Both the position numbers and the translations under genes were made by a program. Under the pieces are notes generated by a model. It was given only the letters and a program-made list of their open reading frames with translations, ran no database searches and had not been told where the DNA came from. This document shows, piece by piece, positions 36,472 to 38,585 of a stretch of DNA of 64,000 bases; within the stretch, counting starts at the first letter, position 1, and every line of letters begins with the position of its first letter. Origin of the DNA: a phage; sequence record PX930851.1, one strand, 5' to 3'.

Positions 36472-36524
36472 AAGCCTTGCGGCAACCTTGTCGGGGTTCC
36501 ACCTACTAAGGCAAGTGTTTGTAC

Positions 36525-36616
36525 GAAACGCCGGGATTCGAACCCGGTTATCAAGCAGTTGACGCTACTCAATATTTTTAAAAGGCCATATCTCGACCAT
36601 ATCCGAACGTTCCGTC
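36525..36616 (-). ncRNA. tRNA-like element (possible stable small RNA or degenerate tRNA)
   Basis: perfect T-arm CCGGG-TTCGAAT-CCCGG and 7-bp acceptor-like pairing (CGGAACG/CGTTTCG) but no canonical D or anticodon arm. Confidence 0.3.
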
Positions 36617-36782
36617 AAAAACGCTACTCGGCTTACGGCAAAGATATTTCCTCGAATCGATAATTCGGTGCGCCGTTTCTGCTGTGATATAAGGGGGCAT
36701 TAACAAAACATAAAGATTTATTAATGCCAGTCCTTAAACAGGGAACATCAGTCCGACGACTTACCGGTAGCGACCCGGTTTC

Positions 36783-37133
36783 TTAATATTCTTTTAAAGC
36801 ATCAATTTGTTCACGGCGTTTACGCCATAAATCAATTGCTTCATAAGCAGATTCAGCATTTCGAATTAGCCGACATTTATGTAAAGACTTATGATTTTGA
36901 TATTGTGTAGATAACGGAATTTTATCTAAAAGGTCTTTACGTTCAAAATATTCGTAACCATCTAAACCAAATGAACGATTTTTGAGAAATTGCCAATGAC
37001 CAAATTCGTTTTCGACATAAACATAATCTGCATGCTGATAAAGCAAATTAATTACACGTTCAGAAATAACAGTATCATTATGATTAAAATAGAATGTTAA
37101 ATCATGAACTACTAAGTAAACATTGCCTTTCAT
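36783..37133 (-). CDS. hypothetical protein, 116 aa, embedded in the tRNA cluster
   Basis: ATG 37133 with GAGGAAAAT RBS; track start 37181 would overlap tRNA-Arg. Confidence 0.55.
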   Translation of the reverse strand: MKGNVYLVVHDLTFYFNHNDTVISERVINLLYQHADYVYVENEFGHWQFLKNRSFGLDGYEYFERKDLLDKIPLSTQYQNHKSLHKCRLIRNAESAYEAIDLWRKRREQIDALKEY

Positions 37134-37151
37134 ATTTTCCTCACTTATAAT

Positions 37152-37228
37152 TGGTCGAGACAGAAGGATTCTAACCTTCAACCTACGGATTAGAAGTCCG
37201 TTGCTCTATACAATTGAGCTATGCCTCG
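37152..37228 (-). tRNA. tRNA-Arg (anticodon TCT), CCA encoded
   Basis: manual cloverleaf: 7-bp acceptor, anticodon loop CTTCTAA, T-arm GAAGG-TTAGAAT-CCTTC. Confidence 0.8.
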
Positions 37229-37232
37229 TATT

Positions 37233-37307
37233 TGGCGGACATGCATGGATTCGAACCATGGACCAATTGATTAACAGTCAACTGCTCTACCACTGAGCTA
37301 CACATCC
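37233..37307 (-). tRNA. tRNA-Asn (anticodon GTT), CCA encoded
   Basis: manual cloverleaf: D-arm GCTC-AGTGGTA-GAGC, loop CTGTTAA, T-loop TTCGAAT. Confidence 0.75.
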
Positions 37308-37311
37308 AAAT

Positions 37312-37398
37312 TGGTGGGGAGTGATGGAGTCGAACCACCCGAGTCGCAATGACAATGAATTTACAGTCCACACCGCTACCTCTACGGGATAACTCCCC
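37312..37398 (-). tRNA. tRNA-Tyr (anticodon GTA), long variable arm
   Basis: acceptor GGGGAGT/ACTCCCC, anticodon loop CTGTAAA, long variable arm, CCA encoded; D-arm pairing imperfect. Confidence 0.7.
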
Positions 37399-37410
37399 TA
37401 ATTCATAATT

Positions 37411-37485
37411 TGGTGGCCCTGGGTGGAATTGAACCACCATCTGGCGATTATGAGTCGCTTGCTTGAACCTTCCAGCTACAGGGCC
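37411..37485 (-). tRNA. tRNA with CAT anticodon (Met, or Ile2 if lysidine-modified as for T4 tRNA-Ile)
   Basis: acceptor GGCCCTG/CAGGGCC, loop CTCATAA, T-arm GGTGG-TTCAATT-CCACC. Confidence 0.75.
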
Positions 37486-37486
37486 T

Positions 37487-37562
37487 TGGTGCTGATTGAC
37501 GGAATCGAACCGCCGACCTTCTCATTACAAGTGAGTTGCTCTACCTACTGAGCTAAATCAGC
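37487..37562 (-). tRNA. tRNA-Thr (anticodon TGT)
   Basis: canonical cloverleaf; loop CTTGTAA; T-loop TTCGATT. Confidence 0.85.
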
Positions 37563-37567
37563 AAAAC

Positions 37568-37657
37568 TGGCGGAGGCGATAGGATTCGAACCTATGAATC
37601 GCCGGAGCGACTGCCGGTTTTCAAGACCGGTGCATTCAACCACTCTGCCACACCTCC
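37568..37657 (-). tRNA. tRNA-Ser (anticodon TGA), class II
   Basis: long variable arm; loop CTTGAAA; near-identical to T4 tRNA-Ser as recalled; 2 nt from tRNA-Pro (dimeric precursor). Confidence 0.88.
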
Positions 37658-37659
37658 AG

Positions 37660-37733
37660 TCTCCATACAAGGATTTGAACCTTGGACCTCCTGATCCCAA
37701 ATCAGGCGCTCTACCAAACTGAGCTACACGGAG
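37660..37733 (-). tRNA. tRNA-Pro (anticodon TGG), CCA not encoded
   Basis: canonical cloverleaf; loop TTTGGGA; abuts tRNA-Ser. Confidence 0.85.
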
Positions 37734-37743
37734 TAAATTAAAT

Positions 37744-37817
37744 TGGAGCGGATAATGAGAATCGAACTCACATCATCAGATTGGAAGTCTGAGGTAATAC
37801 CATTATACGATATCCGC
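37744..37817 (-). tRNA. tRNA-Gly (anticodon TCC)
   Basis: acceptor GCGGATA/TATCCGC; loop CTTCCAA. Confidence 0.85.
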
Positions 37818-37822
37818 AAATT

Positions 37823-37909
37823 TGGTGCGAGAAGTGGGACTCGAACCCACAAGGAAATCATTCCGCAGCATTTTAAGTGCTGTGCCTTTACCAATTTGAC
37901 CATTCTCGC
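37823..37909 (-). tRNA. tRNA-Leu (anticodon TAA), class II
   Basis: long variable arm; loop CTTAAAA; T-loop TTCGAGT. Confidence 0.85.
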
Positions 37910-37910
37910 G

Positions 37911-37983
37911 CTGGGAATAAAGGACTCGAACCTTTGCATCTAGCAGTCAAAGTGCTATGCCTTACCAACTTGGCTAATTCCCA
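37911..37983 (-). tRNA. tRNA-Gln (anticodon TTG), CCA not encoded
   Basis: acceptor TGGGAAT/ATTCCCA; loop CTTTGAC; 1 nt from tRNA-Leu (Gln-Leu dimer as in T4). Confidence 0.85.
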
Positions 37984-38052
37984 ATTATTAACAAAGGCTC
38001 TCAAACAAGAACCCTTGATGATAGAGGGTATTAATCAGTGCGGTATGAGTTA

Positions 38053-38077
38053 ATAATAACAAATAATTCTTAAAGCA
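38053..38077 (-). promoter_or_regulatory. candidate MotA-dependent middle promoter upstream of tRNA cluster
   Basis: AATTTGCTTTA MotA box, 12-nt spacer, -10 TATTAT. Confidence 0.5.
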
Positions 38078-38585
38078 AATTAAACATTTTAACGGTCGGC
38101 AAAACAATTTCTTCTTCTATATAAGAGTATTTAACACTCTCAACTACACGCAAAAAATCATAATCATAATACTCAGAAGCATTACCTAAAATATTAATAA
38201 GTCCTTCAAGCACTTTATTACCATTCACAAAGAATAAGTCAAATACGCGTTCTTCGTCTTCTTCGGATTTATTACCAAGGTCAACTTCTATATCAAAGAC
38301 CTTTTTAATGAATTCTGGATAAAGTTGTTCTGAGAACAGTCCTTCAACCAAGTATTCATAAATAAAAAGCGATTGCTCGCTGAACAAGCCATTACCACAA
38401 TAACGTTCAGCTTTAGTACTAGAATGTCTACTTTTAAACTTCTTTAAAAGATATTGAAATTGTAAGATTTCATGCTCTTCTACGCCAAACAGTGTTTTAG
38501 TTTTATAGTTGTCACCATCATTTTCCCAGGTAGTGACATCAATTACGTAACCCTGTGGAATTGTAGTACCTAAACAAATATTCAT
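38070..38585 (-). CDS. hypothetical protein, 171 aa
   Basis: ORF track. Confidence 0.55.
   Translation of the reverse strand: MNICLGTTIPQGYVIDVTTWENDGDNYKTKTLFGVEEHEILQFQYLLKKFKSRHSSTKAERYCGNGLFSEQSLFIYEYLVEGLFSEQLYPEFIKKVFDIEVDLGNKSEEDEERVFDLFFVNGNKVLEGLINILGNASEYYDYDFLRVVESVKYSYIEEEIVLPTVKMFNLL

Follow-up and report, generated by a model that had tools for sequence, protein, structure and literature searches.

A T4-like tRNA region with ten tRNA genes, very probably the segB-less allele of T2, RB51 and Kha5h type

On the minus strand of a 64,000-nucleotide stretch of phage DNA (record PX930851.1; hereafter the window) lies a tight cluster of tRNA genes that includes tRNA-Tyr and tRNA-Asn, two genes that T4 does not have. 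What is this locus, and what might its additional genes and the elements that follow them be doing? Over 1.74 kb the sequence matches that of phage Kha5h at 98.6% identity, and there is clear synteny with T4, T2 and T6. It sits between the e.x genes and the trna.x and internal-protein genes; in Kha5h it is bordered by e.6 and e.8 at one end and by trna.4 and ipI at the other, and the T4 map agrees. We found nothing that contradicts its identification as a T4-like tRNA region. It is thus very probably the tRNA region of a Tequatrovirus (T4-like coliphage) carrying the segB-less allele of T2/RB51/Kha5h type, and we hold with equally high confidence that the whole layout is to be read as one minus-strand transcription unit of about 1.6 kb. 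Nothing in the region is new, as its gene set, promoter, stable RNAs and Tyr/Asn cassette are already published or annotated. Its features are collected in Table 1.

Table 1. Positions of the features of the tRNA region in the window, in the order of predicted transcription, and of the cassette that distinguishes it from T4.
Feature	Position	Strand	Remarks
MotA box ATTTGCTTTA	38071-38080	-	invariant in T4, Kha5h and the window
-10 element TATTAT	38053-38058	-	12 nt downstream of the MotA box
Transcription start (predicted)	38046	-	equivalent of T4 PtRNAE (PtRNAsc1) 72593
tRNA-Gln (UUG)	37910-37983	-	no CCA encoded; identical to T4 gene
tRNA-Leu (UAA), class II	37823-37909	-	CCA encoded; 87/87 identical to T4
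tRNA-Gly (UCC)	37744-37817	-	74/74 identical to T4
tRNA-Pro (UGG)	37659-37733	-	no CCA encoded; identical to T4
tRNA-Ser (UGA), class II	37568-37657	-	CCA encoded, unlike T4
tRNA-Thr (UGU)	37487-37562	-	CCA encoded; 73/76 identical to T4
tRNA CAU, Ile2 type	37411-37485	-	75/75 vs T2, 47/77 vs T4
tRNA-Tyr (GUA), class II	37312-37398	-	A73, CCA encoded; 87/87 vs T2
tRNA-Asn (GUU)	37233-37307	-	G73, CCA encoded; 72.6 bits with the Rfam tRNA model
tRNA-Arg (UCU)	37152-37228	-	44/82 vs T4, 62/79 vs T2, 77/77 vs G2469
116-aa ORF, homologue of T2L 'trna.2' (phrog_3355)	36783-37133	-	conserved, low dN/dS
rnaD (species 2 RNA) homologue	36667-36786	-	aligned to T4 rnaD annotation
rnaC (species 1 RNA) homologue	36522-36660	-	Kha5h and T4 annotation; coordinates by blastn
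Intrinsic terminator	36443-36471	-	annotated in Kha5h, conserved in T4
Cassette not homologous to T4, 682 bp	36784-37465	-	blastn breakpoints

An earlier note on this DNA had folded ten minus-strand tRNAs by hand. ARAGORN gives the same set with the same anticodons, including the Tyr and Asn calls that a tRNA finder might have rejected, and all six elements that the note listed were located, either where it had placed them or a few bases away. When the genes were scored a second time with the Rfam tRNA model at its gathering score, nine of the ten lay above it (59-73 bits, E 1e-10 to 1e-14). The tRNA-Tyr fell below this threshold, its sole Rfam match being the tRNA-Sec model (29.9 bits); the gene matches the annotated tRNA-Tyr of T2 throughout and that of T6 at 86 of 87 positions. 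The six tRNAs from Gln to Thr, the genes of subcluster I, stand in the same order as in T4 and are 96-100% identical to their T4 counterparts. The tRNA with a CAU anticodon, which had been given as Met or Ile2, belongs to the Ile2 type: the E. coli genes that it matches best carry the annotation tRNA-Ile (81.6% identity), and it presumably reads AUA after lysidine modification. This gene is the T2 allele and not the tRNA-Ile gene of T4. The tRNA-Arg is the same as the Mosigvirus allele and unlike the genes of T4 and T2, the tRNA-Asn differs from that of T2 (63/77 identical), and the Tyr and Asn genes as a pair are 100% identical to those of RB51.

Upstream of tRNA-Gln, the MotA-type promoter candidate of the earlier note falls on the middle promoter PtRNAE as mapped in T4. 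Its two elements fit the published MotA-box consensus, (a/t)(a/t)(a/t)TGCTTtA, and the spacing rule of 12 ± 1. In T4 the PtRNAE start site has been mapped at 72593 (PMC2988021, Table 1); transferred to the window by alignment, it lands, by homology, at 38046, which is 7 nt past the -10 element and gives tRNA-Gln a leader of 63 nt. Between the MotA box and tRNA-Gln, the window and T4 have the same sequence. We predict that this promoter is the MotA/AsiA-dependent middle promoter PtRNAE and, by homology, that it is active. At the other end, the terminator that had been placed downstream is there, with a G+C-rich stem of 10 bp (36471-36448; seven G-C pairs), a GAAA loop and a T run. No late promoter was found inside the cluster, the sole nearby TATAAATA lying past the terminator. 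The unit would accordingly run from PtRNAE through the leader, the ten tRNAs, the 116-aa gene, rnaD and rnaC to the intrinsic terminator, with the tRNAs in the order Gln-Leu, Gly, Pro-Ser, Thr-Ile2(CAU), Tyr, Asn, Arg.

Within this unit, the suggestion of T4-like dimeric precursors is borne out at the level of the junctions. Between the Gln discriminator and Leu there is a single base (C), and Pro and Ser stand two bases (CT) apart, the same bases as in T4 and T2, and a third tight pair is formed by Thr, whose CCA is followed by one base and then the CAU tRNA. The T4-identical junctions, together with Gln and Pro genes that do not encode CCA, are the sequence prerequisites for dimeric precursors of Gln-Leu, Pro-Ser and Thr-Ile, which RNase P would process once CCA has been repaired. 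Because the Gln-Leu and Pro-Ser junctions and the CCA-less Gln and Pro genes are identical to those of T4, the processing pathway can be extrapolated from T4: as T4 biochemistry suggests by analogy, host RNase P, RNase E, 3' exonucleases and the CCA-adding enzyme would cut the transcript into its parts.

How, then, does the region differ from T4? The earlier note saw two additional genes, and ten tRNAs against the eight of T4 do make Tyr and Asn extra. The difference is nevertheless a replacement of a 682-bp cassette, more than two added genes: within it lie Tyr, Asn, Arg, the 116-aa ORF and the greater part of the CAU tRNA, and T4 carries tRNA-Ile, segB and tRNA-Arg at the corresponding place. 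The word 'expanded' holds relative to T4 but not relative to sequenced phages, since the Tyr/Asn version is the commoner allele. It occurs in 419 phage records, against 126 with a full-length segB, and is thus about three times commoner than the T4 allele. The Tyr/Asn/Arg/ORF cassette was published in 2008 as a segB-less allele (Brok-Volchanskaya et al., PMC2330249), with a T2L map of Met(CAU), Tyr, Asn, Arg, the ORF trna.2 and RNA species I and II (PMC2330249). Consistent with this allele, a tblastn search of the 64-kb window with T4 SegB gave no match better than E = 2.

SegB, a homing endonuclease, cuts the T-arm region of tRNA genes (PMC2330249), with a core motif GGTTCRANTCC in tRNA T arms and a preferred 27-bp site in tRNA-Asn (PMC2330249). 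Compared as the core motif only, GGTTCRANTCC is found in eight of the ten tRNA genes of the window, Asn among them, and also in rnaC. The Asn allele of the window differs from that of T2 at positions that flank the core motif. One further copy of the motif, at 62894, lies inside a 610-aa ORF in no tRNA-like context, and we treated it as a chance occurrence. The cassette swap relative to T4 lies at a recombination hot spot where SegB acts. SegB-driven amplification, a route that has been described for T6, is unavailable in cis here, because segB is missing from the window.

We then considered what the tRNAs may be for. The codons of all ten are 1.6-4.5 times commoner in the phage ORFs than in a small E. 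coli sample (50 kb of K-12 that includes ribosomal-protein operons, with ORFs called in the same way), and the ratios are similar against what we take to be the genome-wide E. coli values. The ratio is highest for GGA (4.45), and AUA and AGA also rank near the top at about 4-fold, in a phage of 35% G+C. For the Tyr and Asn codons, about which the earlier note had asked, the enrichment in the phage ORFs is 1.6-1.8-fold, so that supply alone would explain why these two genes are retained. The phage tRNAs would then top up the pool for codons that are enriched relative to E. coli. They would also sustain translation once host tRNAs have been degraded or cleaved by the nucleases of defence systems, as has been shown in T6, against Septu, for a tRNA-Tyr with a one-base difference.

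Could defence be the main reason for the variable part of the cluster, that is, its Tyr and Asn genes and the alternative alleles of Arg and Ile2, with codon supply secondary? We consider this possible but not the likelier reading. Colicin E5 targets tRNAs with QUN anticodons, to which Tyr and Asn both belong, and colicin D targets tRNA-Arg, both of which speak for a role against tRNA-cutting nucleases. The existence of several cassette alleles, with three versions of tRNA-Arg(UCU) and at least two of tRNA-Asn, is expected under diversifying pressure; it is also expected from SegB-driven gene conversion and from recombination between T-arm repeats. In their anticodon loops, the phage Tyr and Asn tRNAs look the same as those of E. 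coli, and we rejected nuclease evasion by altered loops on that basis. A further argument comes from T6, whose tRNA-Tyr, nearly identical to that of the window, is expressed and counters the Septu defence (Chihara et al. 2026, PMC13096335). T6 becomes Septu-sensitive without its tRNA-rich region, and T4, which has no tRNA-Tyr, cannot escape Septu (PMC13096335); the same paper also has the tRNA-Tyr of T5 countering retron-Eco7 (PMC13096335). Septu, however, also cuts the T6 tRNA-Tyr (PMC13096335), so any protection would come by dosage and not by resistance to cleavage. With this and the codon enrichment taken together, we hold a mainly defensive role of the variable part to be the less likely reading.

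Downstream of the tRNA genes, the unit continues with the 116-aa ORF, rnaD and rnaC, all of which are strongly constrained. The earlier note had seen, between tRNA-Arg and the terminator, a tRNA-like element at 36525-36616. Its T arm is indeed perfect (CCGGG-TTCGAAT-CCCGG) and is followed by an acceptor-like 3' strand; the element is not a separate one, however, but belongs to rnaC. The T arm of rnaC carries a compensatory G-C to U-A change. The two ends of the whole rnaC, 5' and 3', come together in its acceptor-like stem, where pairing is 100% and three lineages have an A-U to G-C swap. This covariation supports a tRNA-shaped fold of the whole rnaC. In the proposed fold, an acceptor-like terminal stem would stack on a canonical T arm, a long hairpin would carry an invariant CGUCAA loop, and a large arm would stand where a tRNA has its D and anticodon arms. 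At least four genera of Tevenvirinae have kept rnaC, and in clusters of the Karamvirus type it sits between true tRNAs. To the fuller proposal, that all 139 nt are tRNA-shaped and possibly a tRNA mimic, we give only a small chance. If it were true, rnaC may be a decoy or sponge for host nucleases that target tRNAs or for tRNA-processing enzymes, and it might work together with the equally conserved rnaD and 116-aa protein. An exact-pattern scan of IMG/VR with the T-arm region of rnaC returned six unrelated true tRNA genes and zero rnaC homologues.

rnaD, which lies between the ORF and rnaC, had been missed in the earlier note. Its consensus fold shows compensatory change in 10 of 32 pairs. At a permissive threshold, Rfam gave nothing credible for rnaC or rnaD over 36300-38200, and Rfam 15 appears to hold no family for either RNA.

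An eleventh tRNA gene of unusual build, containing either an intron or a long arm, is a very improbable reading of the element (here about 36521-36615). ARAGORN does call a tRNA there when introns are allowed, homologues are annotated in GenBank as tRNA-Lys (phage 55) and tRNA-Met (SonariX), and the perfect T arm could be joined by an acceptor stem of 8 bp. In that internal helix, however, pairing reaches only 87.5% and compensatory changes are absent, against the complete pairing and the A-U to G-C swap of the stem made by the rnaC ends. A T arm stacked on a 7-bp acceptor stem is present, with the stem drawn from those ends; a canonical cloverleaf (D arm, 5-bp anticodon stem, 7-nt loop and stable anticodon) is not, the D and anticodon arms being poor. 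ARAGORN makes no call unless introns are allowed, and the anticodon that it then assigns varies by homologue (Leu, Lys or Met). The Rfam score of the element is at noise level (16.4 bits, E 6.7), and the T4 annotation treats the whole 139 nt as one stable RNA. We therefore retain rnaC as a single RNA of which the element is a part.

The 116-aa ORF of the earlier note is a real, conserved gene. Its reading frame is unbroken and full length in 426 phage records from several genera, all homologues keep an MKGN start, and a GAGG Shine-Dalgarno sequence stands 6 nt 5' of the ATG. dN/dS is 0.023 against T2 and 0.10 against Mosigvirus, and a pN of 0.005 against T2 indicates only a slight difference at the protein level. 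The published probe primers for trna.2 (PMC2330249) match the ORF of the window. A Serratia phage has a homologue of 37% identity at the same end of its tRNA cluster; in Serratia phage CHI14 the ORF homologue is present, but no alignable rnaD or rnaC was found. That the ORF is a chance frame in the spacer of a tRNA transcript is the least probable reading of all, since its conservation, dN/dS, common start and Shine-Dalgarno sequence outweigh its missing annotation in the Kha5h record, its lack of a domain or fold match and its setting within an RNA-processing unit, with a ribosome-binding site about 10 nt away from where tRNA-Arg ends (3') and a stop codon that overlaps rnaD at its 5' end.

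Searches for a function of the protein gave no family match in Pfam, NCBIfam or PADLOC; DUF2654 alone came up, below threshold (E 0.064; 13.9 bits, where the cut-off is 25), and was rejected. In PHROGs the ORF falls in phrog_3355, a family without known function. An AlphaFold2 model (7-sequence alignment, mean pLDDT 68) had no Foldseek match in the PDB at E <= 0.001. A profile search of 1.84 billion representative proteins returned 8 clusters only, which gave no functional lead; one of these, a repetitive protein of 650 aa, matches the basic helix only.

As a finding, the region matters little, its components being published or annotated. It is a clean example of three things: that T4 itself is the minority allele at the tRNA locus, that the homing endonuclease SegB has shaped this locus into a mosaic hot spot, and that the gene to which the 'extra' tRNA-Tyr belongs is now known to count in the contest with tRNA-cleaving defences.

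Among the closest known systems is the tRNA region of T4 (NC_000866, 70908-72530), which has Gln, Leu, Gly, Pro, Ser, Thr, Ile, segB, Arg, rnaD and rnaC. The two share genomic position, the PtRNAE promoter, the leader sequence, the first six tRNA genes and the Gln-Leu, Pro-Ser and Thr-CAU junctions, and their rnaD, rnaC and terminator are about 94% identical. In contrast, T4 has segB and its own tRNA-Ile(CAU) and tRNA-Arg(UCU), lacks Tyr, Asn and the 116-aa ORF, and has a tRNA-Ser without an encoded CCA. T6 (NC_054907) carries Gln, Leu, Gly, Thr, Met(CAU), Tyr, segB and Arg. It resembles the window in its tRNA-Tyr and differs in having segB and T4-type CAU and Arg genes and in lacking Pro, Ser, Asn and the 116-aa ORF.

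T2L/T2 (EMBL AJ880101; LC348380) shares with the window the series of CAU, Tyr, Asn, Arg, the ORF 'trna.2' and RNA species II and I, with CAU and Tyr genes that are 100% identical. In T2, however, the ORF 'trna.1' replaces tRNA-Thr except for its first 16 nt, whereas in the window Thr is intact and no trna.1 stands between Ser and the CAU tRNA; Asn and Arg (62/79) are also other alleles. With its intact tRNA-Thr and no trna.1, the window is therefore the ten-tRNA RB51/Kha5h variant and not the T2L map itself. Kha5h (KT184312), RB51 (FJ839693), Sf24 and about 270 others have the same ten-tRNA arrangement, at 95-99% identity over 1.74 kb. The Kha5h record annotates the ten tRNAs, rnaC and the terminator, with neither the 116-aa ORF nor rnaD marked, and biologically the records of Kha5h/RB51 type and the window are the same.

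The minus-strand cluster is a textbook tRNA region, and this version of it is common and has already been published and annotated. Kha5h, an Enterobacteria phage of the genus Tequatrovirus, is 98.6% identical across the 1.74-kb region, at least 80% of which is covered in about 270 phage records. Its annotation holds the same ten tRNAs, rnaC ('species 1 RNA') and the terminator; neither the 116-aa ORF nor rnaD is annotated in that record. The earlier note's observation is correct, and its interpretation holds up, save for the refinements described here.

Running ARAGORN on the whole 64-kb window, we find ten tRNA genes with the anticodons Gln UUG, Leu UAA, Gly UCC, Pro UGG, Ser UGA, Thr UGU, CAU, Tyr GUA, Asn GUU and Arg UCU. 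These match exactly the ten anticodons that had been assigned by hand, and the Tyr and Asn calls both survive. Nine of the ten genes score 59-73 bits against the Rfam tRNA model, above its gathering threshold. The exception is tRNA-Tyr, which falls below it and whose sole Rfam match is the related tRNA-Sec model (29.9 bits). In ARAGORN, its cloverleaf is complete: it has the long variable arm of class II, the CCA is encoded and the discriminator is A73. The gene is identical to the annotated T2 gene at 87 of 87 positions and to the T6 gene at 86 of 87, the one differing base lying in the T stem. The tight, T4-like spacing of 1-2 nt claimed for Gln-Leu and Pro-Ser is borne out: a single base lies between the Gln discriminator and Leu, and Pro and Ser are two bases apart, with the same junction sequences in the window, T4 and T2. 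An encoded CCA is missing only from Gln and Pro, and a third tight pair is formed where Thr-CCA is followed by one base and then the CAU tRNA. The GenBank label for this last gene is Met. Among 5,345 E. coli genomes, its best matches are genes annotated tRNA-Ile (81.6% identity, full length), and both the acceptor stem (GGCCC...) and the anticodon stem resemble those of E. coli ileX. We read it as a probable AUA-decoding Ile2 tRNA, like T4 tRNA-Ile.

Features of the tRNA region and related matches in the window
Feature	Coordinates	Strand	Remarks
Ten tRNA genes	37152-37983	-	ARAGORN
tRNA-Arg(UCU)	37152-37228	-	
T4 homology, first block	38089-37466		blastn
Segment between T4 blocks	37465-36784		blastn breakpoints
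T4 homology, second block	36783-36439		blastn
116-aa ORF	36783-37133	-	start MKGN, as in all homologues
rnaD	~36667-36786	-	blastn against T4 annotation
rnaC	36522-36660	-	blastn against T4 annotation
tRNA-like element	36525-36616		
Terminator	36471-36443	-	10-bp G+C-rich hairpin, then T run; closes the unit
Late-promoter motif	36434-36441	-	
157-aa ORF	35920-36393	-	phrog_2280, function unknown
Extra GGTTCRANTCC match	62894-62904	-	

The promoter candidate of the earlier note, of MotA type, consists of ATTTGCTTTA, 12 nt and TATTAT, in accord with the published consensus, a box (a/t)(a/t)(a/t)TGCTTtA whose distance to the -10 element TAtaaT is 12 +/- 1 bp (PMC2988021). From this box to tRNA-Gln the sequence is invariant across T4, Kha5h and the window; the adjoining upstream coding sequence diverges. 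PtRNAE (PtRNAsc1) is among the mapped T4 middle promoters, and its start site, 72593, aligns to window position 38046, 7 nt past the -10 hexamer. The candidate is therefore this known promoter, and we infer that it would also be active in the window's phage. At the other end, the terminator is followed by a 157-aa ORF with a late-promoter motif, TATAAATA, upstream of it. The N-terminus of this ORF, MKSYTQFLNEA, resembles in our reading the sequence that targets T4 internal proteins to the capsid; the corresponding position in T4 holds no gene.

The 116-aa ORF carries a GAGG motif 6 nt 5' of its ATG; a longer, TTG-initiated version would overlap tRNA-Arg and is unsupported. By tblastn, 426 phage records contain the full-length ORF. 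Its Mosigvirus homologue, about 69% identical, lies directly 3' of tRNA-Arg, and a homologue in Serratia Winklervirus (37% identical) lies at the end of the tRNA cluster. Given this full-length spread and a low dN/dS (0.023 against T2 and 0.10 against Mosigvirus), the ORF is a real gene. It belongs to PHROG 3355, a family without known function. We found no significant match in Pfam, NCBIfam or PADLOC, a profile search of 1.84 billion proteins returned 8 clusters only, and the predicted model (medium confidence, pLDDT 68) has no PDB neighbour. The ribosome-binding site starts about 10 nt past the tRNA-Arg CCA, and the TAA stop overlaps the site that corresponds by homology to the T4 rnaD 5' end, so that the message of the ORF sits between two RNA-processing sites. 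These flanking sites probably limit its expression, the same argument that has been made for segB (PMC2330249).

The 345 bp 3' of the ORF comprise rnaD, rnaC and the terminator, and align to T4 with about 94% identity. Both stable RNAs are stated to be expressed and without known function (PMC3014915, a review; PMC9697503, omics), and a 2025 study reports a convergent SNP in rnaD during host adaptation (PMC12685909). The earlier note had placed a tRNA-like element here; the tRNA-like feature exists, but it is not separate, falling within rnaC. In the 3' part of rnaC, ARAGORN calls a tRNA only with introns allowed, and the anticodon differs by homologue (Leu, Lys, Met). Homologues are annotated as tRNA-Lys in Mosigvirus phage 55 (L012 1971-2064) and as tRNA-Met in Enterobacter phage SonariX (L013 1554-1648); this anticodon call is a tRNA-finder artefact. 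In Karamvirus-type clusters, an rnaC homologue lies between tRNA-Trp and tRNA-Gly.

Two folds of rnaC were compared in eight aligned homologues from about four lineages, including Moonvirus, Karamvirus and the SonariX record. In one, the partner of the 3' strand CGUUUCG is the very 5' end of rnaC, giving a terminal stem that stacks on the T arm; this fold also has a long arm, as well as a hairpin of 10 bp whose CGUCAA loop is invariant. Across the homologues 94.7% of cells are paired, and both sides change in 18 pairs compared to 5.5 in shuffles, none of 500 of which reach 18. The terminal stem itself is 100% paired, and in three lineages an A-U pair is replaced by G-C. In the other fold, the reading of the earlier note and of ARAGORN, the acceptor partner is the internal strand ACGGAACG; this helix is 87.5% paired with no compensatory change, and is disfavoured. 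Covariation, modest evidence from eight sequences, thus favours a tRNA-shaped unit that would be the whole of rnaC, not the internal 92 nt.

The rnaD fold is also conserved, with compensatory change in 10 of 32 pairs. Between Tequatrovirus (window 36518-36790) and Mosigvirus (L003 2838-3190), rnaD and rnaC are nearly invariant while the adjacent protein is about 69% identical, which points either to very strong RNA constraint or to recent segment exchange. In Dhakavirus dhabil (L016 1422-1640), rnaD lies directly 3' of tRNA-Arg and runs straight into the window's post-rnaC trailer; rnaC is therefore absent there, and the stable RNAs are not always linked. Several GenBank records lay small 'hypothetical protein' CDS features over rnaD/rnaC (comparison loci L003 2922-3050 and L017 377-672).

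Codon usage was compared by applying the same crude ORF caller to the window and to 50 kb of E. coli K-12. The codons of all ten tRNAs are 1.6 to 4.5 times commoner in the phage than in the K-12 sample, with Gly (GGA, 4.5), Ile2 (AUA, 4.1) and Arg (AGA, 3.9) among the highest; the Tyr and Asn codons, for which the earlier note had proposed this check, are enriched 1.83- and 1.59-fold. Genome-wide E. coli codon values give similar ratios. This enrichment speaks for a supply role of the tRNAs. Direct evidence of a defence role comes from T6, which Septu stops by cleaving tRNA-Tyr in the variable arm (Chihara et al., 2026, PMC13096335). Infection is regained by tRNA-Tyr over-expression or SegB-driven amplification, deletion of the tRNA-rich region gives greater Septu sensitivity, and T4, without tRNA-Tyr, is unable to escape (PMC13096335).

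The T4 reference order is Gln, Leu, Gly, Pro, Ser, Thr, Ile, segB, Arg, rnaD, rnaC. From Gln to Thr, the window carries the T4 genes at 96-100% pairwise identity, whereas the CAU tRNA (47/77) and tRNA-Arg (44/82) are so unlike those of T4 that they are different genes with the same anticodons. Between the two blocks of T4 homology lie 682 bp with no T4 counterpart, and segB was not found in the window. The T2L tRNA region has been sequenced and likewise lacks segB, in place of which it holds tRNA-Met(CAU), Tyr, Asn, Arg, the ORFs 'trna.1' and 'trna.2' and RNA species I and II (Brok-Volchanskaya et al., 2008, PMC2330249). The published trna.2 probe primers (PMC2330249) match both ends of the 116-aa ORF. 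The T2 genome record reads Gln, Leu, Gly, Pro, Ser, ORF, Met, Tyr, Asn, Arg, ORF; its CAU and Tyr genes are 100% identical to those of the window and its 116-aa ORF is nearly the same (pN 0.005), whereas the Asn (63/77) and Arg (62/79) alleles differ. The window's tRNA-Arg is instead that of Mosigvirus (77/77). tRNA-Thr is intact in the window, but T2 retains its first 16 nt only, ahead of the trna.1 ORF (L011 575-591), which appears to have replaced most of the gene. From these comparisons with T2 and Mosigvirus, the locus is a mosaic of alleles. For tRNA-Arg(UCU), we see at least three unrelated-looking alleles: T4/T6, T2 and window/Mosigvirus.

SegB preferentially cleaves within the tRNA-Asn gene, and in T2L x T4 crosses about 1250 bp of T2L DNA are replaced in a SegB-driven manner (PMC2330249). 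The SegB core motif GGTTCRANTCC occurs in eight of the ten tRNA genes and in rnaC, compared to 0.16 chance matches expected in the whole window. The T loop of tRNA-Arg reads GGTTAGAATCC and lacks the motif. One extra match, within an opposite-strand 610-aa ORF and with no tRNA-like context, is probably chance. In the phage collection, the Tyr and Asn pair (at least 80% coverage) is found in 419 records and full-length segB in 126. The cluster is therefore 'expanded', as the earlier note had it, relative to T4 only: the version with Tyr and Asn is the commoner, and T4 is the minority form.
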